Shown: one piece after another, positions 4,488-32,552 of the stretch
How positions within the stretch are numbered: the stretch's first letter is position 1
Layout: every line of letters starts with the position of its first letter
Assembly (NCBI GenBank): GCA_051599415.1
Contig: AP039692.1
Span: forward strand, 682,001 to 714,618
DNA length: 32,618 nucleotides
Direction of reading: 5' to 3'
From: Savitreella phatthalungensis
Taxonomy: Eukaryota
Notes under the pieces: model-generated
The model's database searches: none
Told to the model about the DNA's origin: nothing
The model's input: only the letters and a program-made list of their open reading frames with translations
Made by a program: the position numbers and the translations under genes

Positions 4488-7188
4488 ATGCAGCATGTCT
4501 ATACAGTCGTAAGAAGAAATGACTACTAATATAATCGGCCTTCGACAGACGGCACGGCTGGACGAATTCTTCCCGCCAGAGGTCGTCTATGTGGGTTTCA
4601 CACGCATCAGCGCAATATCGAAAGAGCACGAGGCCCGCCTAGTAGCCCAAGAAGCAACTTCCAAAGACGTTCTCATCGCTGTCTGTCTTCTACAAGACGA
4701 CCACTATAAGTTCACGACATCCATTGGTCGTCAGGACTCGATACAGGCACTCGCACGTACGCTCGAGGCTAATCTCGTTGGTCGCAACATCACAGTCGCT
4801 TGTCTCGTTGACCTCGGAAGCGATAACGTCCTTAGATGGAGTGACACAGTCGATGATGTGCTCGACCAGGATTCTGTGGTCGGTCTTATGCCGGTCAATC
4901 GAGCTGTCGCGGCAAGTCTTCACATGCCCACAATGGTCGGAGCCATGAGTTCTGCAAGATACAATAGCGCCCCGATTCCTCAGGAGGAATTTCCTGATCC
5001 AAAACCACGATCTGCTTCGGTCGATTACACAGGCATGCGCCGCCCTTCACAGACGCTGCGTGCGAGGCTGAAGAGGAAGGAGTCAGTGACATCGATTGCG
5101 AGTAGAGTGACACCCGCCATGCAGGTTTACAACATGGCGCCGATTATACCTTTGCCTGCTTCGACCAACGAGTCGAACGACCTCGTAAGACGCAGATCGC
5201 AGCTACAAGACGTTAAGAGCAACGCCTTCATGTTGCGTGACTTTTGCCGCTTCTGTGCACGGAAGCGTAGTTTGCTCGAGCTGCTCTTCTGGCTTGAAAC
5301 AGCGGTGGAAGACCACGATCCCGACTACATCGATCGGTTATTCATTCGCCCAGATGCACCGCTGCGTCTGAATCTGCCGACCGAGCTGACTGGTATTAGC
5401 GATGCGCGCGCTCTTGTGCAAGACGGGCAGCTGCTCTGGAGTTTCGGTCTCTTCGAGCAAGCATCGGAGGGGGCGCACACCGTCCTGCTACAAGTGGAGC
5501 ATCCGGATCTTTATCAGCAAGCAGCGATGCGACTTCGCGGCACAGCAGGTCGAGAAAATTTCATTAATCTCATGACCCAGGCTCTCAGCCCTGACGACAC
5601 GACCATCCTCTCTCATCGCGAGCGTAAGGAGACGCGCACGCGACAATCAATCCTGGAACGTCTTTGCGACCAGTTTTTCCCGAACTCCCAAATCGATTCC
5701 CGTGGCTATTTCGAGCTTCGCGAGGAGCACATGACATTGCCCGAGCGGACCCGGCTTGACAAGCGGCGAGCGGCCTTCGGCCAATTGGACGGCTCGGATG
5801 GCTTGTCATTGCAAGCTGTGCCACGAGTCTTTGTTCAAGGACGGGCAGCGCAGCCAGCCATTGCGGCAGAGTTTTACGATCGAACGAGCGACTTCCTCGA
5901 TGATGCTAGAGCTGTCGATCTGAACCCAGCCACCGTCGCCACGATATCACAACCGGCAAATGAGACAAATGTGCCACTAGAACAGACTCAGGACAACACC
6001 GAGTATGAGCTCGACAGCGATGCGACGTCGCTCATGACCGATGATAGCGATAAATCGCGTCTGCTCAATTTGCGATCTCAGAGACTGCTGAAAGCGCAAA
6101 AACTCTCGTCATTGCTTGGCCTTCAGGTCGATCAGAATGGACATGTCACATCGACGTCAGCACCACATGAGCGTAGAGGCCTTCCCAGAGCTATTTCCGG
6201 CGGTGTCGATGCAGACGAGCTGAGCGCCTCGCGTCGAGCCGAGATCGTCAAGCGACAGCACAAGCTACGAAGTGTGTTCGGAAGCCCGTCCAATATGATA
6301 CCCTCGCCAGCCACCGTCAAAGACACGGAAAACGCCGGCGTGAGACGATCGAGCGTGGTAGGATCGTCGATCAAGTCGAGAGCCAAGTCGCCCGCGGCCA
6401 GCACACGTAGTCGAAGATCGGACTTGTCTGACTTCTCTGCAGTATCGCGGCAGACACGCGACGCGGATGTGGAACGACGTGCGCAGGCTCGCAAGCTGGC
6501 CAAGCTATACGCTCAGTTTGGCGACCATACGTCACGTGATAACAACCACGGGGATGCTCACTTGGGCTACTCTACAAATCAACGTAGCCTTTTGCGTGGT
6601 CGAGCCAGCATAAACGACTTGCGTCGACCCGAGACATCCATGAGCAATTATGCGCATAGTATTGGTCGATCCTCGATAGGAGGTCGATCAACCAAGACTG
6701 GCATGGCCGGCCGATACTTGCCAGACCGTGGTGGACCTGCACACCAGCACTCGTTGCAGCAAAGTCGGCTGCTCAATTTTTTCAACCCCTCCAGTCAGCA
6801 GGCGACACGGCGCGGGTCTCGGTCTCAGCAGCCGCAGCAGGCTTCAGAACACTCAGAGCACCAGCCGCGATCACCACTCATGCACGACAACGCATCCTCC
6901 TCCACTTTGCCACTCGATCCTTATGCTGTGGGCGCCGTCGTTCACTCGACCGTTGTTGAGCCTCTTTTGGCGTCGCCTTCTATCAATTCCTTTGTGGAAG
7001 CTAATCAGCAACCAACACGCGCTTCTTTCGACAGTGAAGATGGGCAGGGAGAGGACTTTCACGACATTGAAGAGGAAGAAGAGGAGGAAGAAGAAGACGA
7101 GGATGACGAGGGCGAAGCTATCGTTCAGGATGTCAAGACGAGAATGAAGCTCAGGCAAATGCTTGGCCACGATGCGCCAGCGGTCTGA
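4488..7188 (+). CDS. Large uncharacterised protein with RGS-like domain; probable 40-nt intron 4509-4548
   Basis: 889-aa ORF. LRDFCRFCARKRSLLELLFWLE...YIDRLFIRPDAPLRLNLP resembles the RGS helical motif. The track ATG (4519) lies inside GTAAGA...CTAAT...ACAG; splicing joins MQHVYTV (ATG 4488) in frame to TARLDEFF. Confidence 0.65.
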
Positions 7189-7217: not shown

Positions 7218-8498
7218 CTATCTACAAGAATGAGAGTCGTTGCCAAAAGCATAAAAGTCTGCGATATCCATTGCCTGCACCTGTGATTCGCGCCATCGAT
7301 CGATGTCATCATCATCATCCTCATCATCGTCGTCGTCAGTAGTCCCAACATCGCGAGATGCGCTCCTGGGTCGAAGCTTGACGACCGGGATTTTGGAAGG
7401 AGTCTGTGCGAACTGTGCCCCGGCGCTCGCAAGACCGTCCCGCTTGACGATGTCATCCTCGCTGACGGCAAAACGATTGGCCGGAGACCTCCCAGGATAG
7501 GGGCTATGATCCAATCCGAGATTGTTGCCATGCTCCGGCTCTGCTGTGACGCCTCGGTGTCTGATGCTACCCAACCTGAATGCCTCGTGCCAAGCCGACC
7601 GGCCAAGAACGTGATGCTTAAGACCGTGACCGAAATTTGTGACACACACGATACCATTTGCGAGCGTCGCCACCAGGAGAGCGATCGTAACAATCGCAAA
7701 TGTTGCCAAAGGACGTCTGGCAGAATTGCCGTACGTGGGGGCCTTCGGACCGGCGTAAAGTCGAATCAGCTTGAATAGGAAGTAGGACAGCCCCGCGAGC
7801 ATAAATAAGCAACTGACAGCCATTCCCCAACGCTTTTCATGCCGTAGAGCCCAGGCGGTAAAGATCAGGCCCAGGACGGTTGTCGGGATGGCGGCTAAAG
7901 TCAGAGCAAACTCTGGATCCTTTACATCGAGAGCGATGACTGCGAACTGGATTGAGAAGCCGAGGAAGAAGATAAAGTCGAACTTGAGTAGGGAAACAAG
8001 GATCTGGTAAGCCATGAAACGCCTGCGCATGCGCAAATCTGCGCCAATGTGCTTGTAAATTGACCAACCAAACTCGCGGTACAGTCTCCAGGTCAGGTAG
8101 GCCAAGCATGTGGTGAAAACGGCAATGACACACGGTATAGCGACGAGAAAAGGCTGCAGGGATCCATACAGTGAGATCGCTCCAGCCACGGCGAGCGCAT
8201 CCTTGATCTGGTCTATCTGAATGACCGCGTAAACCAGTAATGCAAGATGATAGATAGCGAGCCCGATGAGCTGAATAGTGTTCTCCTGGGATACAGAATC
8301 CCATGCAACAATGATTCCGAAGAATTCAGCAAAGAGAACAAGCGCAAAATAAGTCGGGATACCCTTGACCTGTTTGGCAATCGTGCCATGCCTCAGCTCA
8401 TCGAACGTTGCTGTAAGGTATCGGCCTAGAACGTAAGACTCGAGCACCACCACTGCCAAGGTCTGCACACCTGTAATGCACATGTACAAGCGGCGCAT
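7218..8498 (-). CDS. UPF0658-family multi-pass (Golgi) membrane protein
   Basis: About 8 hydrophobic segments; motifs ENTIQLIGL, LYREFGWSIYKHIGAD, LLKFDFIFF and NFGHGLK typical of fungal UPF0658 proteins; acidic tail. Confidence 0.8.
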   Translation of the reverse strand: MRRLYMCITGVQTLAVVVLESYVLGRYLTATFDELRHGTIAKQVKGIPTYFALVLFAEFFGIIVAWDSVSQENTIQLIGLAIYHLALLVYAVIQIDQIKDALAVAGAISLYGSLQPFLVAIPCVIAVFTTCLAYLTWRLYREFGWSIYKHIGADLRMRRRFMAYQILVSLLKFDFIFFLGFSIQFAVIALDVKDPEFALTLAAIPTTVLGLIFTAWALRHEKRWGMAVSCLFMLAGLSYFLFKLIRLYAGPKAPTYGNSARRPLATFAIVTIALLVATLANGIVCVTNFGHGLKHHVLGRSAWHEAFRLGSIRHRGVTAEPEHGNNLGLDHSPYPGRSPANRFAVSEDDIVKRDGLASAGAQFAQTPSKIPVVKLRPRSASRDVGTTDDDDDEDDDDDIDRWRESQVQAMDIADFYAFGNDSHSCR

Positions 8499-8877
8499 CG
8501 TCTGGCCGCTGTGTCCAGCGATTAGTCGCGAAGGTCCGTGAGTCGATCGGGCGCGTGCAACGCAATGGCTTTCCTACTTGTCGCACTATGAACCAGACTG
8601 AACAGTACGAATACCAACGTTGAAAACAGCCGTCGTCTGTCTTCGTATTGCCGTCTGCTTCTTTAAGTCTTCTGCTTTAATGCCCGGGGTCCACGGCGCG
8701 TACGTGGGCCTGCGTGTTGTGTGCACACGCGCTACTCATAAACCAGGTAAAACAGTGGCGTATCTACAAATTGCATATCAAATCAAGGGGTCACGCGTTC
8801 CGATGCAGGCGACAATATTTTGATCCGCAAATGGAATGGTCATGCATTCGCTGGACTGCATGTATTCTGATCATACA

Positions 8878-10530
8878 TTAGCTTAAAACAACAGCAAAGG
8901 CGAGCGTCCATGCCGGCATTGCGATTGCCAGAATAGTTGGTGGTGTCCAGCAGTGGTAGAAAGACCAATCGAAGGCAGCCAAGTAGGTGAAATTTTCCCC
9001 AGATTTCGTCGCCAAGGCGTGCAATAGCGCTGGACAGGCTGACAACATGACCACAATGCCTGCAGGCCGCGGCAAGCGCGGCGCATAGGCGAATACAATA
9101 GTCCCCGCAGCTAAGACATAGCCGAGGGAGAAATTCAGAGCGGAAATCATACCCAGCAGGAGTCCCAGTGCAAGAGAACGATAGGCATCGACCTGGCTGC
9201 GCAAAGCCTGCTTGTTCAACAGTATCGAGAGTGCTGGTATTTGTAGGACGTAAGCCATCGCGATCGAGACATTGCTAGCTCGATTTGCCGATTGCCATAT
9301 TGCGGCTCCGAGCGCATGTGTTGCAAGCACGATCCCCACAGCAAGCATATCCGAGTCTTTCGTTGGCCTCCCCATCGCTAGCACACTTTGTCCGGTGGCC
9401 ATGAGCAGAGCAGCTGGAAGATATGACGCAATCGAGACAAATCGATGGGTGTTCGGCAATAGGTAGAAAAAGTAGGACGCGTGCATATGCTCCAGTAGAT
9501 TGTTTAGCGAGCGGACGATGCCCTCAACGACACGGCCAAATGAAGCGTCGTCGTGCATTCCATCGCTCTTGCCTTTGACGCGGAGAGAGATAGCGTCCAC
9601 CCGATATGGTATCAGTGGCGAATGTGACCCAGTTGGCACTCCGACGGCCGAACTTCGCAGAGCCTTCCACAAAGTTGAAACTTTGCCCTTCCAGGTTTCT
9701 TCCTCTCGACCATGCTGTACTGTCGCGCCAATCCCGACCTGGTGTTTTGTGATATGTATGGCGCTGTTGACCAGATCAAGGTTCGAAAGTTGCCCATTCG
9801 GACCGTCGTATGCAACGTCGATGTCGTCAAACCGATTGTCTTGCCCATAAAATTCAAGATCGACCGCGGCCTGGATAAGACCAGCGCGGCGAACGAGCGA
9901 ATCAGATCCACCTGGAGTCTCGCCATGGTACGCATCAGCCCAGACCTGCGAGCCATATTCCTGATGCTCTGGGACTATAAAAATGAGGTCTTTAGACCAC
10001 AGACCCCAGCGCTTGAAATAGCGCGCGAGGCCAAGTAGGATCGCCACACCGCCTTCGTTTACGACCCCATCTCGATCGCGAGTCCACGAGGCTAAGAGTG
10101 CTAAGCTCTCAGTTGTGTCGCCTCTCGGTGCATGGAGTATGCCATAAATGTTTGTTCCGTTGATGACAACATCGGGCCGAGGCCTGACGCTGTAGTGCTG
10201 GCGAGCGGTCGCAATGCCAGCGGCAGCCAGAATTCCCTCAATCGAATCGAGCCTGCTCTCGCGGTCTCCAGCCTGCCATAGTCGCACCTCATTTCTGAAG
10301 GCATTCAAAGCTTTGAAGTCACCACTGCCAAAGTATGTCTGGACCTGACCCGGCATGAGTGCATTCTCAGATATTCGTGTTGGCTCGTTGACGCGATCGT
10401 CGGCGAGTCCTAAAGGCCATAGCAGGCCTACAACAAAGAGAAACGTTGCTATGTGTAATCTGTGACGTTCGAGAATCTGAGCAATCTGCCGTCTACCTTC
10501 TGGTCGAAGGACGTAAGCGGCTAAGCCCAT
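8878..10530 (-). CDS. GAA1: GPI transamidase component Gaa1
   Basis: N-terminal TM, ISENALMPGQV, APRGDTTE, NGQLSNLDLVN, RSLNNLLEHMHASYFFY, C-terminal TM bundle. Confidence 0.95.
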   Translation of the reverse strand: MGLAAYVLRPEGRRQIAQILERHRLHIATFLFVVGLLWPLGLADDRVNEPTRISENALMPGQVQTYFGSGDFKALNAFRNEVRLWQAGDRESRLDSIEGILAAAGIATARQHYSVRPRPDVVINGTNIYGILHAPRGDTTESLALLASWTRDRDGVVNEGGVAILLGLARYFKRWGLWSKDLIFIVPEHQEYGSQVWADAYHGETPGGSDSLVRRAGLIQAAVDLEFYGQDNRFDDIDVAYDGPNGQLSNLDLVNSAIHITKHQVGIGATVQHGREEETWKGKVSTLWKALRSSAVGVPTGSHSPLIPYRVDAISLRVKGKSDGMHDDASFGRVVEGIVRSLNNLLEHMHASYFFYLLPNTHRFVSIASYLPAALLMATGQSVLAMGRPTKDSDMLAVGIVLATHALGAAIWQSANRASNVSIAMAYVLQIPALSILLNKQALRSQVDAYRSLALGLLLGMISALNFSLGYVLAAGTIVFAYAPRLPRPAGIVVMLSACPALLHALATKSGENFTYLAAFDWSFYHCWTPPTILAIAMPAWTLAFAVVLS

Positions 10531-10621
10531 CGAGCCAGCATATGAACGTGCACGAGGATCAGAGTGTTAACTGTCTGGGAGGCTCATTATAATGCATGTG
10601 TAATTTATGTGATGATTATCA

Positions 10622-12829
10622 TTAATCTCGGTGAAAGTCGTCGAAGCGCTTGTTCGATTTCTTCTGCTGCTCGTACTCTTTCAGAAGCTTTTTTGCCATG
10701 CTCTTACTGATTTCTGAGCCCTCAAGATGGGTTGGAATACCACGTTGATCAAAGGAAGTATAGCGCGTGTCACCCCTGAACATCTCTTCGGCGCGTATTC
10801 GCCCCTTTTCCAGCGCAGCTGCTTCTCGCTCTTTCTGCGCAGCCTTCTTGGCGGCCTTGTCGCGCGCCTGTTGCTCTTTCTCCGCCTTCTTGGCGAGCAA
10901 AATTTCTGGCGAGCTCGCTTTTAAGATAAATCCATCCTTGCGATCGTCGAGAGCTATGCCCAGCTCCGGAAGAACGTCATCTCTGAATCGGTCGAGCTCG
11001 ACTAAGATGGGTCGATCGCCACGCGCCAAACTTGCTCTAAACGTCCTGAGGCTTTCATTGTCGAGTGACAGCCGATCGAGACCAGCCATGATTCCTGCAA
11101 TGTCTCGTCCCGCAGCCACACGCTCACGGATCTCCTGTCTGCACTCCGCAATCTGCCGTACCTCGTTCATCAATGCAGCGTCGACGTCAACTGGCCAACC
11201 ATATTCTCCGGCATCGTTGACTTCGACACCGAACACTCCGAGCAAGTCAGTCACAAAATGAGCGACGTCGCGCAAGGTTGCTGACGGCGCCACGTGATCG
11301 TGCGACATGTGCTTGTTTGACTCAGTTACGAGATCGCGCAAGAGCGTCATCGCTAATGGAGTATCGAAGTCGTCTGCAAGGGCAGCGTCCACATCATCAC
11401 GCGTCTGCTGAAGTCTCGAGGCTAGTGCATCGTTCCTCGTGTCTCCTTCGAGCTCCCGTACCTGGACGAAGAGTTCTTGCACTTTGGCTTCGAAATTACG
11501 CGCTGACTTCAACAAGTCGTCGCTGTAATCAACGCGACCACGCCATCTGCCACTGAGGAAAATGAAGCGGAGCAGTCGCGGGGAAATCTCCTCGAGGACT
11601 TGCTTGATCGTGATGAAGTTCTTCAAGCTCTTGCTCATTTTGAGCCCACGAATGTGCAAGTGACCAGTGTGCAGAAAGTAGCGCACCCAGTCATGGCATC
11701 CATGGTAGGCTTCAGACTGGGCGAGCTCATTATCGTGGTGCGGGAATGTCAGATCCTCACCACCACTGTGTATATCCATTTGTGGGCCAAAGACATCAGA
11801 GGCCATGACGGAGCATTCTATATGCCATCCGGGACGACCCTGTCCCCAGGGACTTGGCCAAGAGGGCTCGCCGACCTTGCTGGCTTTCCATAGAGCGAAG
11901 TCACGCTTGGAACGTTTCGCCTGAGCTATTGCCGCTGACAAAGAGCCCTCGGCTTCGTCCAGAAGAGCGTCTGCTGAAGTCGCCATGCTGGATGGTTTGA
12001 GTTTTGCGTATTCATGCCCGGCCGCAATGAAACGAGCGACATCAAAATACACACTCCCGCCGGTCTCGTACGCGAGGCCACTCACGACCAGACGATCGAC
12101 AAAGTCGACGATTTGCGGCATGTAATCCGTGACACGCGTGATCTGGTCTGGTGGCAGCACGCCGAGGCTGGCCATGTCCGCGTTGAAGTCTGCTTCCCAG
12201 AAGGTGGTCAGGGCCTTTGTAGCGTGCACAATCTCGTCGTTAGTAAGTTGCTGGTCAGGCGTATCGATTCCGGACACGATAATATCGCGAGCCGATGCAA
12301 TGTCAAAATCCTCGCTCGTCAAGCTCTGCGCAGCGGCAGATAAAGCTTCAATGTGCATGTAGTCCTTGGGATGTTGCAAGGGATCTCTGGCGGCAAGCGG
12401 ATTTGAAAGCCAAGTCTCGGGCGTTGCACCGCTTTCACCGAAATGGCGATCGATGTACTTGGCAAAGAGCTCTCGTACCTCTTCTCGACTCCCCCGATAC
12501 CGGTCGAACAGTAGTTGCTGACGCGCCTTGACGATAATTTTGTCGTCGACATCGGTCACATTTTGGACGTATCGGACTTGCAAACCGAAGTAGCCTTCGA
12601 GCAGACGACGCAGTATATCTGTCGTGACATAGTTCCGAGCGTGTCCTAAGTGCGATGCATCATATACAGTAGGGCCGCAAGAATACCAGTCTAGACGATC
12701 TTTGCCGTCGCGCAGGGTCAAGGGTCGGATCGATTTAGTGAGAGTGTCGTATACGTTCAGTTGCGCTGGCACGGTCACCTGCTGCCGGAGAGAATGTCGA
12801 GTCATCAGGGTGAGTGACCTACAGACCAT
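10622..12829 (-). CDS. CRS1: Cysteinyl-tRNA synthetase
   Basis: WYSCGPTVYDASHLGHARNY, GRPGWHIECS, FPHHDNE, KMSKS. Start uncertain: ATG 12829 (possibly followed by a 45-nt in-frame intron) or 12805. Confidence 0.95.
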   Translation of the reverse strand: MVCRSLTLMTRHSLRQQVTVPAQLNVYDTLTKSIRPLTLRDGKDRLDWYSCGPTVYDASHLGHARNYVTTDILRRLLEGYFGLQVRYVQNVTDVDDKIIVKARQQLLFDRYRGSREEVRELFAKYIDRHFGESGATPETWLSNPLAARDPLQHPKDYMHIEALSAAAQSLTSEDFDIASARDIIVSGIDTPDQQLTNDEIVHATKALTTFWEADFNADMASLGVLPPDQITRVTDYMPQIVDFVDRLVVSGLAYETGGSVYFDVARFIAAGHEYAKLKPSSMATSADALLDEAEGSLSAAIAQAKRSKRDFALWKASKVGEPSWPSPWGQGRPGWHIECSVMASDVFGPQMDIHSGGEDLTFPHHDNELAQSEAYHGCHDWVRYFLHTGHLHIRGLKMSKSLKNFITIKQVLEEISPRLLRFIFLSGRWRGRVDYSDDLLKSARNFEAKVQELFVQVRELEGDTRNDALASRLQQTRDDVDAALADDFDTPLAMTLLRDLVTESNKHMSHDHVAPSATLRDVAHFVTDLLGVFGVEVNDAGEYGWPVDVDAALMNEVRQIAECRQEIRERVAAGRDIAGIMAGLDRLSLDNESLRTFRASLARGDRPILVELDRFRDDVLPELGIALDDRKDGFILKASSPEILLAKKAEKEQQARDKAAKKAAQKEREAAALEKGRIRAEEMFRGDTRYTSFDQRGIPTHLEGSEISKSMAKKLLKEYEQQKKSNKRFDDFHRD

Positions 12830-22537: not shown

Positions 22538-24358
22538 CTACTGAGTTTCCATTATCTTTCGTCGTTCGCCTTGAAGTGTGCGTTGGGTTTCGAGGAATTT
22601 ACCCAGAGGCGTATCTTCTCGAGCGAGCTCAAGCTGTCGCTGCTTCGGCCAGTCTATTTGCTTGCGCCGATGCTCTACGAGCTGCGCATTCGCCTGCAAG
22701 CGATCGAGCAGCGCAGAGATCCGCCGAGCTAGCTTCGCATCAGAGCACCTTCGTACATATCGCTTGAGTTGAATACTTACCGGAACGCAGAGTTCTGGAA
22801 AAGCAATCGAAGAGGCGTGAATAGCAAAGAACTCCGTCAGCAGATCACAAGTTGTCTCGCCAAGCTGTTCGTGATACGTCGAAGTGCGAAGAAGTTCCTG
22901 CTTTGCTCGGACACTGGTTTCCATTGACATCGGCTTTATGGTCGAAGGTTTCGGCTTCCTCCGCATTTCTGCGGAATCTAGGACGTCCCAAAGCAATCCG
23001 GCGAGCGGTACGAAGACATCGCATGCCTCGGACAATCGCAGCAGCGATCTGACCAAGGCAAATCGCATGGGGAAGTTCTGTGGCGACGTGACCGTGCGTG
23101 CAGCTCCGAGAGCCACCTGCACAAGCGGGTATATAAGTGAGTCTAAGTTGGTCGCAGGATGACGAGCAAGCACAGTACACCAGAAGTCGATGCTCTGACA
23201 GAACTGCTGTGAAGAAATTGTCCTTCTCGCTTCTTCTGTCTTGTCGTTGACGGCTTTGCGGAGGACAATGGCTAGTTGTCTGATGAAGTTGAAAGCGAGC
23301 GCGTACGAATCCTGCACGTCCACGCCGTAAAGCTCCGCGGCACTGTTTTTCATCAAGGTGATATTGCCTATCGTCAGAGTGGAGACTGCACGAGCCTCTC
23401 GGACGAAAGTGGTATAGAGCTCGCGCAGCACAAGCTGACGAAGGGCTGAATCCGTCATGGCAAACTGGCGCGCGACGAGAATAGCGCTGACCCTAGTCGA
23501 GCCCTCTGGAGACGAGGACCAAATCCGTACGGTCGACCGCACGAGGTCACGACACAGCCGACGATTGCTGAGCGTGTACGGTACCAAGTCTGTCAAGCTG
23601 TCGAGCACTTGTCTCTGCATGGCTGAGTCGCTCAGATCATCGAGCAGATGCAACAGACTGCTCAAAAAGGTTTTGATTGTCGGGGTCAATTTGCTAAGAC
23701 GCTTTGACTCTTGTGGCGGCCTGACGCGTTCAGCTCCTTCTCTGGCCGGGACGACGCGGCGAAGAAACTTGGGAACTCCATTAACTGCCAGCGTCACAAT
23801 CTTCTGCAACACCTCCGGGCTCTCGTCAACCTCTGCATTCGTCACAGCATTCTTGAAAGCCGTGACGAGTCGCTGGAAGCCCTTTGTAGTATCATTGGCT
23901 AGCGACTCGGCCATCTGGTCCACCTGCGCCAGAGAGATAATCGTTGCAGGTGACTCGTCAGGAATGTCTTCGTCAGCTGCGATTTCATCCTCGTCATCGT
24001 CTCCGAAGTTGAGCAGCTCTGCATCGTTTTCCTCCAGATACTTATAGAATTCAGGATCCTTGGCCTTCAGGCCTGCGAGATCTGCAGCATGTTCTTCAAT
24101 GGCATCGCCATCTGATTCGGAAGCTTCGCTGTCTTCATCCTTGTCGCCCTGTGCCAGGGAGCCGCCAGCAAGGAAGTCATCCATGGTCATGTTCTCGATC
24201 ACGTCTTCATTGTCGGGCTTTGTAGAGGCCGTCCTCTCCCCAATCACCGACCTGTGCTTCTTGCCTCGCTGTTCAGCTCTGTGCACCTTACGTCGCTTGA
24301 TAACGCCATCCAGATGTTTCTTCTGGAACTTCTTCGTGGTCTTTGACGGCTTCGCCAT
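22538..24358 (-). CDS. NOC2: Nucleolar complex protein Noc2
   Basis: MAKPSKTTKKFQKKHL, LKAKDPEFYKYLEEND..LLNF, LMKNSAAEL, AFNFIRQLAI.LR, LIYPLVQV, IAFPEL. Confidence 0.94.
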   Translation of the reverse strand: MAKPSKTTKKFQKKHLDGVIKRRKVHRAEQRGKKHRSVIGERTASTKPDNEDVIENMTMDDFLAGGSLAQGDKDEDSEASESDGDAIEEHAADLAGLKAKDPEFYKYLEENDAELLNFGDDDEDEIAADEDIPDESPATIISLAQVDQMAESLANDTTKGFQRLVTAFKNAVTNAEVDESPEVLQKIVTLAVNGVPKFLRRVVPAREGAERVRPPQESKRLSKLTPTIKTFLSSLLHLLDDLSDSAMQRQVLDSLTDLVPYTLSNRRLCRDLVRSTVRIWSSSPEGSTRVSAILVARQFAMTDSALRQLVLRELYTTFVREARAVSTLTIGNITLMKNSAAELYGVDVQDSYALAFNFIRQLAIVLRKAVNDKTEEARRTISSQQFCQSIDFWCTVLARHPATNLDSLIYPLVQVALGAARTVTSPQNFPMRFALVRSLLRLSEACDVFVPLAGLLWDVLDSAEMRRKPKPSTIKPMSMETSVRAKQELLRTSTYHEQLGETTCDLLTEFFAIHASSIAFPELCVPVSIQLKRYVRRCSDAKLARRISALLDRLQANAQLVEHRRKQIDWPKQRQLELAREDTPLGKFLETQRTLQGERRKIMETQ

Positions 24359-24498
24359 CGTGACACCCCTCCCAGGATCAGGTACGCGGTGCATTGTATA
24401 TATTCATTTTGTTCTTCATGAGATTGATCGCCGAGCGCTGCGGTAAATATTGGCGCGACACAGAAGAGATTCGAGCTCACGGTAGCAACGCCGGAGGC

Positions 24499-24886
24499 AT
24501 GTCGCTTGGGATCCCGCTCAAATTGCTCCAGGAGAGCATTGGACATGTAGTCACTGTCGAGCTCGATAGCGGTAAGTATTGACAGCCTGCAACATGAATG
24601 AGACTGACGTGCAGGGGCAATGTATCGCGGCACACTTGACACGGCAGAGGATAACATGAACATACAGATGCGCGACATCACTGTCACGGCCCGCGAGGGT
24701 AGAGTCAGCCATGTTGACAAGATTTATGTGCGCGGCTCTCACATCCGCTTCTTCGTCGTTCCAGATATGCTAAAACATGCCCCGATGTTCAAGAACTTCG
24801 AGATCGGCCAGCAGCGCAAAAGCGCAGCATCCAAGCCAGCGCGTAATCTCGTGGAAAAGGGCCGAGGCACGGCCTTGCGTCACTAG
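24499..24886 (+). CDS. SMD3: Small nuclear ribonucleoprotein Sm D3; exons 24499-24571 and 24615-24886
   Basis: [25 protein letters not shown] joins [34 protein letters not shown] through a 43-nt intron, GTAAGT...ACTGAC..GCAG (24572-24614); 114 aa. Confidence 0.95.
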
Positions 24887-25229
24887 CTGAACGTAATTGT
24901 ACCTGATACACTTGACTTCGCGGCTTGACCGATCTGCACCCTGCCGCCATTTCAATGGTCGAGCTTGTGCTCTCGCCCGTGCACATCGACAATGGTAGAC
25001 CGGACGGATACATATTTTTGGCACCCACCTCTGCGCGTGCATGCATGATAATTATAATTTAATTGTTTGCGACCTCTGCATCCATAATTCCCATTACTTC
25101 CATGCTGTCACACTGTACTCAGTATTTTTCAGATCACATTTACCGTGGCTCGAATAGACACGGAGTGCTGCGTATAAGCGCTACAGGCACAGAAACGCAC
25201 CTCACGCTTCGACAAGAGTTGCTTTTACG

Positions 25230-26219
25230 ATGTCGACGTCTGCCGACTATTATTTTGACAGCTATGCACATTTTGGCATCCATGAAGAGATGTTGAAGGA
25301 CTCTGTCCGGACCAATAGTTACATGAATGCTATCAAGCAGAACAAGCATGTCTTCAAGGACAAGATTGTGCTCGACGTCGGATGCGGCACCGGGATTCTT
25401 AGCATGTTCTGCGCTCAGGCTGGAGCAAAGCACGTCTACGGTGTCGACATGAGTAATATAATCCTCAAGGCTCGCGAAATTGTCAAGATCAATCACCTGG
25501 ATGACAAGGTCACGCTGTTGCAAGGGAAAATGGAGGAAATCGAGCTGCCAGTAGAGAAGGTCGACATCATTGTCAGCGAGTGGATGGGCTATTTCCTGCT
25601 ATACGAATCAATGCTTGACACGGTCCTCTACGCGCGCGATCGGTATCTCGTCCCGGGTGGCAAGATTTTCCCTGATGTTGCCATTATGTATGTGGCCGGT
25701 ATCGAAGACGGTGATTATTACGACGAAAAGATAAACTACTGGGACAATGTTTACGGCTTCGATTATTCCCCTATCAAGGAGGTGGCCGTCAGAGAGCCTT
25801 TGGTGGACATGGTCGAATTCAAAGCCGTCATGACTGATCCTTGCGAACTCTTCCGGATCGATATCACCACGGTCACAAAGGAGCAGCTATCGTTTAGCGC
25901 AGACTTTGCTATTCGTGCTCGGCGGCAAGACTACTGCCATGCTCTCATTTCCTGGTTCGACATCGAATTCAATGCCTGCCACAAGCCAGTGAAGTTCTCC
26001 ACCGGCCCACAGGCTCAGTACACTCACTGGAAGCAGACCGTGTTTTACATTGGTCAGGCGCTGACAATGAATGCTGGCGAACTAGTGAAGGGCCATTTGC
26101 GATGTGCGCCCAACGACAAGAACCCGCGCGACCTCGATATTCATGTCGATTATGCGTTTGAACCCCAGCAGCAGAAGCACCGAACGGTCCGGGTATCCAA
26201 GGACTACCGCATGTGCTAG
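25230..26219 (+). CDS. HMT1: Type I protein arginine methyltransferase PRMT1
   Basis: DYYFDSYAHFGIHEEMLKD, VLDVGCGTGIL, SEWMGYFLLYESM, THWKQ. Confidence 0.96.
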   Translation: MSTSADYYFDSYAHFGIHEEMLKDSVRTNSYMNAIKQNKHVFKDKIVLDVGCGTGILSMFCAQAGAKHVYGVDMSNIILKAREIVKINHLDDKVTLLQGKMEEIELPVEKVDIIVSEWMGYFLLYESMLDTVLYARDRYLVPGGKIFPDVAIMYVAGIEDGDYYDEKINYWDNVYGFDYSPIKEVAVREPLVDMVEFKAVMTDPCELFRIDITTVTKEQLSFSADFAIRARRQDYCHALISWFDIEFNACHKPVKFSTGPQAQYTHWKQTVFYIGQALTMNAGELVKGHLRCAPNDKNPRDLDIHVDYAFEPQQQKHRTVRVSKDYRMC

Positions 26220-26402
26220 TCGCAGCATTACTCGCCCAAGGGCGTGATATCAATTGTAGTCAATTGTACATTAAATTTTCATGTGGGGCCGCGATAAGGA
26301 TCTTCCCGTGCCAGGCTTTTAGGCTGCTTCCCTTCACGGCGTTCGGGCTTAGCGTGGCTTGTCCGCGCAGCATTTCGATACCGTCCAATCTGCCTGATAG
26401 CC

Positions 26403-26672
26403 ATGTCACTTAACGTCGTCCTTGCGCAGCAGGTTGGCCCGGAGATCGCCTCGCTCGACAGGCTCTACGATTCTCAGAGCGCATTGCGAGCCGAGATCGC
26501 TAGATTCCGAGAAACGCTCGAGAGGTACGCGACAGACAGTGAGCCGGCAGCCTTGTCGGCCACGGCGCAAAGGCTCAAGCAGACCTCAAGGGCGCTCCTC
26601 AAGATACGCGGTCAGCTCAAAGCTATTGAGGCTAGACTAGTGGTACTCTTACGCGATGAAGATCGATCGTGA
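26403..26672 (+). CDS. 89-aa coiled-coil protein, Snapin/Snn1 (BLOC-1 subunit)-like
   Basis: [24 protein letters not shown] and [23 protein letters not shown] fit the Snapin/Pallidin two-helix pattern; overlaps the urease ATG by 17 nt. Family call is tentative. Confidence 0.6.
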
Positions 26673-28386
26673 GGAGTATGCGGCGCTCTATGGGCCTACC
26701 GCGGGCGACCGCGTCAGGCTAGCCGACACGAATCTCATCATTGAAGTCGAGCACGACATGACGACCTATGGTGACGAGCTCTCCTTCGGCGGCGGTAAAG
26801 TGCTGCGAGATGGCATGGGCCAGGCCAGCTCGCGGCTTGACGGGGAGACGCTTGACCTCGTTCTGACAAACTGCCTCATCGTTGACTATACGGGAATTTA
26901 CAAGGCCGACATTGGTGTCAAAGAGGGCATTATCGTTGGCATCGGCAAGGCAGGAAATCCGGATATCATGGATAACATCACTCACGGTATGGTCGTCGGA
27001 AGTCAGACCGAGGTCATCGCCGGGGAGCACAGGATTGTGACGACCGGCGGACTCGACACTCACATCCACTTCATCTGCCCACAGCAAGCTCAGGAGGCAC
27101 TTGCATCGGGAATCACTACTCATCTAGGGGGTGGGACTGGGCCAGCTCAGGGTACAAACGCGACGACGTGCACGCCTGGCGAATTTTATATTCATCGAAT
27201 GCTGCAAGCGATCGACACTGTTCCCCTCAATTATGGCGTCACCGGTAAGGGAAATGACGCCGGACAGGAAGGCCTCCGAGAGCAGATCCGCGCGGGTGCG
27301 GTTGGTCTTAAGCTCCACGAAGACTGGGGATGCACGCCTGCGGCCATCGACAGCTGTTTGAAAGTATGCGACGAAATGGACGTTCAATGCCTGATCCATA
27401 CAGACACGCTGAACGAGAGCGGCTTCGTTCAGCAAACGGTCGGTGCCTTCAAGAATCGCACGATTCACGCATATCATTCCGAGGGAGCTGGCGGTGGTCA
27501 TGCACCGGACATCATGTGCATCTGCGGACAGCTTGCGGACAACAGTCTCAGGACGGAGAACGTGCTGCCGTCTTCGACAAATCCGACCCGCCCATACACA
27601 TCCAACACCCTCGACGAGCATCTTGACATGCTCATGGTGTGCCACCATTTGAACAAGAACATCCCAGAAGATGTGGCATTCGCAGAGTCACGCATCCGTG
27701 CGGAGACCATCGCAGCGGAGGACATTCTTCACGATACGGGCGCGATTTCGATGATGTCAAGCGATTCTCAGGCGATGGGTCGATGCGGCGAGGTCATTCT
27801 GCGAACGTGGAAGACGGCTCACAAGAACAAGCATCAGCGCGGCCCACTGCCAGAAGACGCAAATACTGGCAACGACAATTTCAGGGTCAAGCGATATATC
27901 TCGAAATATACAATCAATCCGGCGATCGCTCAGGGCATGTCACATCTTCTCGGTAGTCTCGAGGTCGGCAAGCTCGCTGACATCTGCCTCTGGCGTCCGG
28001 ACAGATTCGGAAGTAAGCCAAGCATTGTTGTTAAAGGCGGTCACATCGCCTTTGCTGAGATGGGCGACGCAAACGCTAGCATTCCGACAGTTGAGCCCGT
28101 CATTGGCCGGGCAATGTGGCAGCCTCTGAGACCAGGCCACAGCTCCATCACCTTCCTCTCGCAAGCAGCGATCGATGCGGGCGTACACAAGCAATTGGGC
28201 CTTCAGAAGCGCGTGTCGCCTGTGAAAAACTGTCGCAACATCGGTAAGAAGGATATGATCTTCAATGACGCACGTCCTGTGATTGAGATCGACCCGGAAT
28301 CTTACCGCGTCGAAGCTGACGGCGTGCATTTGACTTGCGAGCCAATGTCAAGTCTGCCGCTGACAGCTGGCCATTACATTTTCTAG
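26656..28386 (+). CDS. Urease, catalytic alpha (UreC-equivalent) chain only
   Basis: 576 aa starting [22 protein letters not shown]. All Ni-site motifs present: [31 protein letters not shown], flap [13 protein letters not shown]. Confidence 0.96.
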
Positions 28387-28617
28387 ATTTAGCCCACCCG
28401 CCGCTTCCGCAGAGACGGCTCCGTAGGTCGTTCCAGATTTGACGTAAAATCGTGGATGGAATTTGAGTTTTTGATCTACCGACAGGAAGTCGTCATCTAT
28501 AAGATGGCGTCCAATCAGCTTGCTTGTCTAAAATGTAAAACCGACCGGTACGCAAACCGATATAAGGCTAATGAAGTCGGTCGTGTGCAGAACTTTGTGC
28601 CGTACTTTCGCGACACC

Positions 28618-29949
28618 ATGGCCATGAACGACCCGCAGACATGGTCATTTCGGAAGAAATGGGGTCAGACGTTGTTGCTGACTCTCATGACTCTCAATGT
28701 CCAGATTGCCGGATCGATCTTCGCGCCTGCTATGCGGCCTATAGAAGCGGAATTTGGTGTTGCGCAGGAGGTTGTCGTGCTCGGCATCACGCTGACGTTA
28801 CTTGGCTTTGCGTTCGCACCCATGGTGCTCGCACCCCTGGCAGAGTCCGTCGGCAGACTCCCGATTTACTGGGGAGGTTATCTGCTGTTTCTCCTGTTCT
28901 CCATCGCAGTCGCAGATGCCCCCAATGTCGTCGTTCTTCTCGTTTTTCGCTTTCTTATTGGAGTCGCCGGAGCTCCATGTAACACCATGATCGCTGGCAG
29001 CATAACTGACATGTTCCCGACTGACAGCCTTGGCCCACCGATGTCGGTCTTCATCTTGGTCGGTCTACTCCTTCCTGTTCCTCTTGGTCCTCTCATCGGC
29101 GGTTTCATTCTTCAGCGCTTCAGCTGGCGTTACGTCTTCTGGTGGCCGCTCGTCCCGGCGGCAGCAATGTTCATCCTGCTGTTTTTGCCATTCATGTGCG
29201 AGACTCGCATGCATAAGCACTCCCCGAAACTCACGACTGTAACGCTGCCGTGGAAGATGCTCGCTGGAGACATCGTGGTCGCATCTTTCTCTTTGTGGCT
29301 CGCATTCAGTTGGGGTGTTACTTATGGGCTGCTCGAGTCCGTGGATGAGGTCTTCAGAACGCTGTATGGCTTCGATGTCGACGGCGTCGGTTGCGTCTAC
29401 ATTGGTCTCATCATTGCGGTATTCGTCGGTTGGCCGGCTGCCGTTTTCGGCGAGGCAATATGGCGTCGACCGCGCCCGCAACCATGTAAGGATGATCGGG
29501 CTGAATCTCCGTCGCGTAGCAGCTGCAGTCAATCGGACTGCCCGCCGCCCGAAAGACGCTTGATTCTCGCTTGCATTGGAGCGCCGATGGTACCAGCGGG
29601 CCTCTTCACTTATGGCTGGACGTCCTATAGATCAGTCAGCTTCTATGCACCAATCTTTGGTGTCGGCCTTACCTTCTTTGGCATCTTCACAATATACTAC
29701 AGCGTCTTCCTCTATCTCTCTACGGGATATTCTTCGAACGCGGCATCAGCGCTCTCAGCCGCAGGCTTTTGGCGAAATATTTTCGCAGCTGCGTTCCCAC
29801 TCTTCACTAGACAGATGTACCAGAGGTTGACTTACCACTGGGCATCGTCTCTGCTTGGCTTTGTGGCCCTCGCGCTTGGCATCATTCCAGTCGCCCTTCT
29901 TTCTTGGGGTCATTATTTACGAGCACGCAGCAAGTTCATCGAGGCATGA
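28618..29949 (+). CDS. MFS drug:H+ antiporter (DHA1 family)
   Basis: DPQTWSFRKKW, APLAESVGRLPIY, GPLIGGFI, WRYVFW, PPERRL, AASALSA, ~12 TMs. Likely start at 28618 (ACCATGG); ORF is open from 28456. Confidence 0.92.
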   Translation: MAMNDPQTWSFRKKWGQTLLLTLMTLNVQIAGSIFAPAMRPIEAEFGVAQEVVVLGITLTLLGFAFAPMVLAPLAESVGRLPIYWGGYLLFLLFSIAVADAPNVVVLLVFRFLIGVAGAPCNTMIAGSITDMFPTDSLGPPMSVFILVGLLLPVPLGPLIGGFILQRFSWRYVFWWPLVPAAAMFILLFLPFMCETRMHKHSPKLTTVTLPWKMLAGDIVVASFSLWLAFSWGVTYGLLESVDEVFRTLYGFDVDGVGCVYIGLIIAVFVGWPAAVFGEAIWRRPRPQPCKDDRAESPSRSSCSQSDCPPPERRLILACIGAPMVPAGLFTYGWTSYRSVSFYAPIFGVGLTFFGIFTIYYSVFLYLSTGYSSNAASALSAAGFWRNIFAAAFPLFTRQMYQRLTYHWASSLLGFVALALGIIPVALLSWGHYLRARSKFIEA

Positions 29950-30091
29950 TATTGATGAAGGAGGTTATTAGCATTCATGTCATTCAGACATCTGTAAATT
30001 TATGTCTGCCGGTTTTGCCGAGCGTCGCAAGTGGTGTAATTGTATTCCGTTCAACACTGCATGGCATCACTGTAAGTCAACAGTTAGGGAC

Positions 30092-30264
30092 AAACCAAAC
30101 TGTAAAACCAAATTGTGAGACCAAACTGTAAAACCAAACGGTGAAACTATATTGCGAGAACCAAACTGCAAAACCAGACTGCAAGAACCAAACTGCAAAA
30201 CCAAACTGCAAGACCAGACTGTGAAAACCAAACAGCAAAAACCAAACTGCAAAAACCAGACTGC
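30092..30264. repeat. Degenerate 11-13 nt tandem repeat (AAAACCAAACTG-like)
   Basis: Repeated aaaccaaactgt / aaccaaactgc / accagactg units. Confidence 0.85.
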
Positions 30265-30312
30265 ATCCAGAAATGCAGCGCTCCACAAATTTGAACCTAA
30301 CTGCATCATGAA

Positions 30313-30391
30313 CTCTGCATTCCCTGCATTCCCTGCATTCCCTGCATTCCCTGCATTCCCTGCATTCTCTGCATTCCCTGCATTCTCTGCA
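30313..30391. repeat. 9-mer minisatellite (CCCTGCATT)n, about 9 copies
   Basis: Directly visible ccctgcatt/ctctgcatt units. Confidence 0.92.
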
Positions 30392-30970: not shown

Positions 30971-31231
30971 CCAGCAGCCGCAGCAGCAGCACAGCACAGC
31001 ACAGCAGCAGCAGCAGCAGCAGCAGCGGCAGCAGCAGTGGCAGCAGCAGTGGCAGCAGCAGTGGCAGCAGTAGGAACAGCAGTAGGAACAGCAGCAGTAA
31101 TGAATGCAGCAGTAATGAATGCAGCAGTAGTAACGGCAGCAGCAGTGAATGCAGCAGTTGCTGTAGTAGTGGCAGTATTAGAAGGAGTGAAGGGAATGTC
31201 AGATGTAGTCAGTGTGGTAGCAGCAGCAGCC
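30971..31231. repeat. CAG/GCA-rich low-complexity microsatellite
   Basis: Runs of cagcagcag with gcagcagtg and gcagtaatgaat variants. Confidence 0.88.
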
Positions 31232-32359: not shown

Positions 32360-32477
32360 TGGGTTTGTGTCAGGGTCAGGGTTTGTGTCAGGGTTAGGGT
32401 TAAGGGTTAGGGTTTGTGTCAGGGTTAGGGTTAAGGGTTAGGGTTAGGGTTAGGGTTAGGGTTAGGGTTAGGGTTAG

Positions 32478-32515
<38 letters not shown>

Positions 32516-32552
32516 GGTTAGGGTTAGGGTTAGGGTTAGGGTTAGGGTTAGG
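32360..32552 (+). repeat. Telomere (TTAGGG)n with proximal variant units
   Basis: Near-perfect ttaggg array; proximal gggtttgtgtca, tcaggg and ttaaggg variants; G-rich strand runs toward the end. Confidence 0.97.

Follow-up and report, generated by a model that had tools for sequence, protein, structure and literature searches.

A stand-alone urease alpha chain in Savitreella phatthalungensis and the probable fission of a fungal single-chain urease in the Taphrinales

A stretch of 32,618 nucleotides from Savitreella phatthalungensis (GenBank assembly GCA_051599415.1, contig AP039692.1, positions 682,001 to 714,618 of the forward strand; hereafter the window, numbered from its first letter) carries an open reading frame (ORF) for the alpha, or catalytic, chain of urease with no gamma or beta domain attached to it. 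We conclude that this ORF very probably encodes the catalytic chain of a two-gene fungal urease, derived from one fission event in the ancestor shared by Taphrina, Protomyces and Savitreella (Taphrinales). The alpha ORF is intact, the window is without gamma-beta sequence, stand-alone gamma-beta partners occur in three genera, and both halves are fungal. The split is a feature of the lineage as a whole, not of this genome alone.

According to this model, the ancestral single-chain gamma-beta-alpha gene would have broken in the linker of approximately 20 residues that joins the beta and alpha parts, in the common ancestor of the three genera. The first product would be a gamma-beta protein of ~260 amino acids (aa), in Savitreella most likely the protein P0137, encoded on another contig. 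The second would be an alpha protein of ~576 aa, which would have acquired a start codon at the position that corresponds to the first residue of bacterial UreC. The two chains would then assemble non-covalently, as bacterial urease subunits do, to give a nickel enzyme that converts urea to ammonia and carbamate. We infer this assembly and the enzyme activity, as well as the transcription and translation of an alpha ORF whose start is overlapped by a small snapin-like gene. A previous interpretation of the DNA from its letters alone (the sequence-only reading) had offered two options: a gene fission that left gamma-beta at another place in the genome, or an enzyme made of alpha alone. Our results support the first, with P0137 on another Savitreella contig and the same two-gene state in Protomyces. 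The second is not supported, as an intact gamma-beta gene in the same species makes it unneeded.

The catalytic chain, its partners and their ancestry

The alpha chain is of UreC type over its full length, with the Pfam domain Urease_alpha at residues 1-121 (E 1.7e-55) followed by the Amidohydro_1 barrel at residues 127-462 (E 3e-74). Residues 1-576 align from end to end with residues 1-570 of Sporosarcina pasteurii UreC (E 2.3e-238), and the chain therefore has the same start point as bacterial UreC, in agreement with the earlier description of a 576-aa ORF beginning where UreC begins. Its full length also matches residues 274-840 of single-chain plant ureases. The claim that every nickel ligand is retained holds as well: motif location and alignment place all six ligands (H136, H138, K219, H248, H274 and D370) in the chain, together with H221 and the flap residues C329 and H330. 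The roles given to these residues are those we take to apply from bacterial structures. A set of 50 other ureases defines 217 near-invariant columns, at three of which the chain departs from the consensus, compared with a median of 1 and a maximum of 7 departures across all rows. As far as its sequence can tell, the alpha chain is without sign of decay.

Gamma, beta and alpha parts do not form one polypeptide of ~835 aa here. The ORF opens directly at the alpha domain, with an in-frame stop five codons 5' of the urease ATG. The sequence-only reading had found no gamma or beta motif in the gap between the urease gene and its upstream neighbour, a PRMT1-type gene; this proved correct and extends to the whole 32.6-kb window, where tblastn with the 275-aa N-termini of six fused fungal ureases detected no gamma-beta sequence (best E 0.16). 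The 436 nt between the PRMT1 stop and the urease ATG do, as had been stated, hold a different ORF: the PRMT1 ORF ends at 26219, and the snapin-like ORF of 89 aa occupies 26403-26672 (Table 1). No urease helper protein (UreD, UreF or UreG) was present among the 20 window ORFs scanned with Pfam, to which the helper search was confined.

Continuity of the junction was assessed by comparing Logan contigs of four sequencing runs (X1-X4) with positions 24000-30000. X1, possibly the source run of the assembly, covers the whole of this stretch. An X2 contig of 1752 nt is colinear with 26311-28062 with 0 differences, and so passes without a joint through the snapin-like ORF and its overlap into the start of the urease gene. 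X2 is only partly independent because it comes from the same sample as X1, the probable source run. Positions 26235-26310 lie outside X2 cover. Along the whole 6 kb, one joint was reported, a 43-nt GT..AG skip within a neighbouring Sm-like gene. Because one X2 contig is without this stretch (24571-24613), at least part of X2 seems to be derived from spliced RNA, although the run is not recorded as RNA; a contig that spans two genes does not, in any case, establish a single transcript. X3 and X4, which carry another organism code, contributed just short low-depth pieces of 95-99% likeness, and no conclusion is drawn from them.

To look for the missing domains beyond the window, residues 1-265 of the Saitoella urease were used as a query against shorter proteins. 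Stand-alone gamma-beta proteins of 257-268 aa, containing PF00547 and PF00699 only, were recovered from Taphrina deformans, Protomyces lactucae-debilis and S. phatthalungensis. All of them lie on contigs long enough (up to 676,895 bp) to exclude cut genes, and every one ends a few residues past GF(K/Q)H, a motif that in fused ureases comes before the linker between beta and alpha. P0137 retains the conserved gamma and beta motifs, and with it the Savitreella genome encodes gamma and beta parts as well as alpha. The two Savitreella halves are on separate contigs, of 401,449 bp (P0137) and 714,618 bp (window alpha). In Protomyces likewise, the alpha-only protein P0249 (597 aa) lies on a scaffold of 253,719 bp and the gamma-beta protein P0126 on one of 676,895 bp. 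P0249 belongs to the 90% cluster of P0026, whose Met start falls directly at the alpha domain. No fused urease from Taphrina, Protomyces or Savitreella was found among the 120 best longer proteins retrieved with P0137; these were fused ureases of other fungi, 58-64% identical. Both proteins of the split urease are already in public databases under the plain name 'urease'.

An 8-residue insertion after the motif GGGHAPDI marks the lineage further. Of 120 proteins scanned, 117 had the flanking motif pattern, and a longer stretch at this site was present in four of these: the window alpha chain, P0026, P0035 and P0099. All four are without gamma-beta. The other alpha-only ureases carry 11 extra residues at the site, against 8 in the window chain.

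Table 1. Features of the window and the stand-alone gamma-beta proteins of the Taphrinales
Feature	Positions in the window, or species and contig	Strand	Basis or description
PRMT1-type arginine methyltransferase gene, upstream neighbour	25230..26219	+	Pfam PRMT_C E 2e-62 and methyltransferase domains
Spacer, PRMT1 stop to snapin-like ATG	26220..26402		no urease-related coding potential; tblastn negative
Snapin/BLOC-1-like small gene, 89 codons	26403..26672	+	ORF; Pfam Snapin_Pallidin near cut-off; homologue P0244
Urease alpha (catalytic) chain gene	26656..28386	+	intronless ORF, 576 aa, PF00449 and PF01979
Lineage-marking 8-residue insertion after GGGHAPDI, alpha residues 293-300	27532..27555	+	motif scan; gap against S. 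pasteurii UreC
MFS transporter gene, downstream neighbour	28456..29949	+	Pfam MFS_1 E 9.7e-29
Telomere-type repeat (GGGTTA)x31	32361..32552	+	Tandem Repeats Finder
P0137	Savitreella phatthalungensis, 401,449-bp contig		stand-alone gamma-beta, 260 aa, PF00547 and PF00699
P0125	Taphrina deformans, 95,036-bp contig		stand-alone gamma-beta
P0126	Protomyces lactucae-debilis, 676,895-bp contig		stand-alone gamma-beta
P0121, P0124, P0128, P0133			four further stand-alone gamma-beta proteins

The proteins nearest to the alpha chain in the database are fused ascomycete ureases of ~836 aa, which are 68-71% identical to it, with the best fused match at no more than 71%. A metagenome scan with P0026 returned 80 loci, comprising one normal fused fungal urease (L001), one fused ORF (L029) and 78 bacterial-looking loci; no member of the split clade was among the 80.

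Phylogenies were obtained from three quick IQ-TREE runs under LG+C20, with SH-aLRT support only. In the first alpha tree (54 rows), the four alpha-only rows formed a clade (99) within the fungal clade (99), apart from 27 bacterial rows. For the second (48 rows), three fragments and 11 bacterial rows were removed, and Coprinopsis, Cerioporus, Mucor, Funneliformis, Gigaspora, Ascobolus, Xylona and P0249 were added. This tree recovered Fungi (96), a clade of the five alpha-only rows (99) and, with these rows inside it, Ascomycota (98), with the fused ureases of Basidiomycota, Mucor and Glomeromycota outside the Ascomycota clade and 16 bacterial UreC rows apart. It leaves the order of the alpha-only clade, Saitoella and Pezizomycotina undecided. 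The gamma-beta tree (51 rows) recovered the fungi at 100 and united seven stand-alone proteins in one clade (92), sister to the fused Saitoella urease (85), with the Basidiomycota (Lentinula, Rhizoctonia) outside Ascomycota. Three short 'alpha-only' proteins (P0003, P0048 and P0096) had been considered as further split ureases and were rejected: they adjoin fused Pezizomycotina ureases in the tree, and this placement identifies them as fragments.

Both halves, then, descend from the fungal urease lineage, and on each tree the split state calls for one change. The split clade is enclosed by fused ureases at several depths, which makes one fission in the ancestor of the Taphrinales the simplest reading. 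The motifs on which the sequence-only reading had based its guess of fungal rather than bacterial ancestry are present in the alpha translation and agree with fungal, not S. pasteurii, residues, and the trees of both halves bear the guess out. In the UreC phylogeny that it had named as a check, and in which a bacterial placement would have spoken against fission, the chain is placed within Ascomycota. At the level of sequence comparison, a bacterial origin of the two halves is contradicted.

Activity and competing explanations

Taphrina species are scored as urease-positive in the accessible parts of two sources (PMC13531029; PMC7912804, Table 3), and the split urease is for this reason probably functional in at least Taphrina. 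Several other points weigh against the single-fission model of a working two-gene enzyme. In the same accessible table (PMC7912804, Table 3), Protomyces is scored as urease-variable, and the accessible part of another paper describes S. phatthalungensis as urease-negative (PMC8877625). The activity of the Savitreella copy is accordingly doubtful or condition-dependent. The alpha chain of T. deformans was not found in any of the protein lists obtained. The trees are quick ones on hand-chosen rows, in which fused fungal ureases are represented by 18-21 of more than 115 and bacterial loci by 16-27 of 79. Finally, no member of the split clade has a longer end branch than the window alpha chain, at 0.52-0.53, where those of other fungal rows range from 0.05 to 0.57.

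These points bear most directly on a reading in which the split is real, but the urease of Savitreella is a silent or decaying relic whose alpha gene yields no active enzyme. The negative urease description, the long end branch and the subtelomeric position of the alpha gene would all fit such a relic. Nonetheless, all 576 codons are open, the catalytic residues are all kept, and three departures in 217 near-invariant columns fall within the range of working ureases. The gamma and beta motifs of P0137 are conserved, and its predicted interface with the alpha chain is urease-like. The alpha ORF is also covered by a contig of X2, a run that additionally holds the spliced form of a neighbouring gene, and a single agar test is weak ground for calling an enzyme absent. 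We consider a relic decidedly unlikely.

The interface was examined by predicting the complex of the window alpha chain with P0137, which scored 0.92, whereas the best of three controls scored 0.00. The mark set for this score was reached by 51 of 78 solved complexes and by 2 of 108 mismatched pairs; among eukaryotes, 39 of 65 solved pairs that have no similar older complex attained it, as did 2 of 126 unrelated pairs. Runs agreed in 100% of contacts, and the partner had a pLDDT of at least 93. As bacterial urease complexes have been solved, the pass may reflect memory of likeness. The predicted interface is still urease-like, although a prediction is no proof of binding.

The same prediction bears on the suggestion that the alpha chain works alone, either as an alpha-only urease or as another amidohydrolase, without gamma and beta. 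This would be in keeping with the lack of gamma or beta sequence in the 32.6-kb window. The species itself and two sister genera, however, keep an intact gamma-beta gene, and alpha residues 1-24 lie within the predicted contact surface with the beta part. Moreover, we know of no active alpha-only urease. A solitary catalytic chain is therefore very improbable.

Equally little credence can be given to the acquisition of both genes from a bacterial donor whose urease consisted of two chains (gamma-beta and alpha), with no fission involved. Bacterial two-chain gamma-beta proteins do share 55-60% identity with the fungal ones and have the same C-terminal GF.H tail (Planctomycetes, Polyangiaceae, Pedosphaera, L002 and L012). 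Nevertheless, both halves nest within fused fungal ureases with strong support, and the alpha chain is 68-75% identical to fungal ureases, compared with 58-67% to the bacterial alpha chains of 79 metagenome loci. Nor is the arrangement that of a two-chain bacterial operon, with gamma-beta directly upstream of alpha: the genes are unlinked and on different contigs, and their neighbours are ordinary eukaryotic genes, including one that has a spliced intron.

That the split is an artefact of assembly or annotation, through a misjoin or a missed intron with distant exons, is barely conceivable, even though P0003, P0048 and P0096 are fragments of just this sort, given that the same break recurs in three genera with independent assemblies and the halves on different large contigs, that the X2 contig is colinear over the junction, that a conserved gene occupies the space upstream of alpha, and that all gamma-beta proteins end cleanly at one point.

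The upstream gene and the chromosome end

The small gene in the 436-nt gap is real and putatively snapin-like. Its 89-aa ORF scores 28.9 bits against Snapin_Pallidin, just below the Pfam cut-off of 29.6, and an 85-aa homologue, P0244, which is 35% identical over residues 6-81, almost its full length, scores 31.5 bits and passes it. An exhaustive search with the 89-aa ORF gave five matches, two of them credible relatives, one of which is the public annotation of the locus itself (P0241). The three remaining matches, to TPR-repeat proteins, were set aside as composition matches. P0241 (66 aa), deposited as a hypothetical protein of S. phatthalungensis, excises a 26-nt 'intron' from the gene and thereby shifts the frame: its residues 1-40 are identical to the translation of window positions 26403-26522, and its tail follows the window in another frame after the modelled intron. 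The unspliced 89-aa reading fits both the Snapin profile and P0244 over its second half, and the X2 contig is colinear across the modelled intron. The deposited P0241 model is probably wrong.

The last 17 nt of the snapin-like ORF overlap the urease ATG in a different frame. A frameshift or fusion joining this ORF to the alpha chain was considered and dropped, there being only five in-frame sense codons 5' of the urease ATG and no slippery site to be seen. After the snapin-like ATG, the next ATG in any frame is that of the urease, and leaky scanning on a shared mRNA would therefore be possible. The ATG-free stretch is nonetheless not unusual: it was also free of ATG in 1740 of 5000 resamples under a Markov model and in 601 of 5000 synonymous ones, with plain shuffles (180 of 5000) the only low null, and the window contains seven ATG-free gaps of at least 250 nt. 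A bolder proposal can be built on this arrangement, in which the Taphrinales hold the first recognised eukaryotic two-chain urease, a lineage-wide reversal of fusion, and in which the Savitreella alpha cistron has no promoter of its own and would be translated from the overlapping snapin-like mRNA by leaky scanning or re-initiation. We advance it very tentatively, and think it rather unlikely as a whole.

The window is otherwise part of an ordinary fungal chromosome, with genes for eIF3i, Gaa1, cysteinyl-tRNA synthetase, CwfJ, Prp31, an aminotransferase, two oxygenases, a cyclin, Noc2, an Sm-like protein, PRMT1 and an MFS transporter. Three long ORFs are without a Pfam match at E 1e-5 (1-1806, 601 aa; 4519-7188, 889 aa; 7218-8498, 426 aa). 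The Sm-like gene (SmD-type by eye; 24394-24886) is interrupted by the 43-nt GT..AG intron that is missing from one X2 contig, and its removal joins two Sm-like ORFs in frame.

The orientation of the GGGTTA repeat (Table 1) is that expected for a right chromosome end, and the repeat therefore places the urease alpha gene ~4 kb from the end of its chromosome. It is followed, up to 32618, by ~66 nt of unrelated sequence, which looks like leftover long-read barcode or adapter. Tandem arrays occupy the subtelomeric positions 30092-30391 and 30972-31158, with units of 13, 27 and 40 nt (30092-30265), a 9-nt unit repeated 8.6 times and a CAG run of 43 copies. Base composition is strongly skewed at 31-32 kb (GC skew 0.27, AT skew 0.38).

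Comparison with known ureases

No description of a split fungal urease was found in full-text searches of open-access papers. Here, a fungal order has taken a fused urease gene apart again, with activity apparently kept in Taphrina, and so offers a natural experiment on how important the covalent links of eukaryotic urease are. The Taphrinales split also represents a clean and datable gene fission of which both products have been retained. A further question is how expression of the two genes is coordinated, given that they are unlinked and that one lies near a telomere and overlaps a different gene. In addition, it carries a warning for annotation pipelines and for surveys that score urease as present or absent, as both halves are labelled 'urease'. 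The split urease is a genuine variant, found across a lineage, of an enzyme that is well known, and is of moderate interest to specialists in urease and gene architecture.

Our searches also touch on the distribution of two-chain ureases in bacteria. In its accessible part, a review describes plant and fungal ureases as single chains and two-chain ureases as coming from Helicobacter only (PMC6077230). Two-chain ureases, with a gamma-beta protein of ~252-261 aa beside the alpha chain, were nonetheless found in Planctomycetes, Polyangiaceae and Pedosphaera-like bacteria (L002, L012, P0164-P0166, P0217 and P0239), which contradicts the Helicobacter-only statement as it stands in that part of the review. 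These bacterial proteins share the GF.H C-terminal tail with eukaryotic ureases. The metagenome contig L029, separately, encodes gamma, beta and alpha in one open frame (8474-11700; 1075 codons from stop to stop). It falls outside the fungal clade in the alpha trees, as a weak sister to fungi in the 54-row tree and with the bacterial loci L002 and L012 in the 48-row tree, and could come from a bacterium, or from a eukaryote other than a fungus, that has a fused urease.

The closest relatives of the Taphrinales enzyme are the fungal single-chain ureases of ~835 aa, of which Ure1 of S. pombe is one. With those of Saitoella complicata (P0047) and the Pezizomycotina it shares ancestry and motifs, the alpha chain being 68-71% identical to them and nested in Ascomycota, and the gamma-beta half likewise. 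It differs from the single-chain ureases in that the polypeptide is broken in the beta/alpha linker and encoded by two unlinked genes, and in that the alpha chain has an extra loop of 8-11 residues after GGGHAPDI.

In plan, the enzyme resembles the two-chain ureases of bacteria (UreA and UreB of Helicobacter, and those of Planctomycetes, Verrucomicrobia and Polyangiaceae), with a gamma-beta chain of ~250-260 aa and an alpha chain of ~570 aa. The bacterial genes, however, are adjacent in an operon (as in L002 and L012), whereas the fungal ones are unlinked and each needs its own eukaryotic expression signals; furthermore, the two-chain state of the fungi is secondary, derived from a fused gene. 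With the three-chain bacterial urease (UreABC of Klebsiella aerogenes and Sporosarcina pasteurii), the Taphrinales enzyme has in common the start, the end and the active site of the alpha chain, but its gamma and beta parts stay fused, and its ancestry is fungal.

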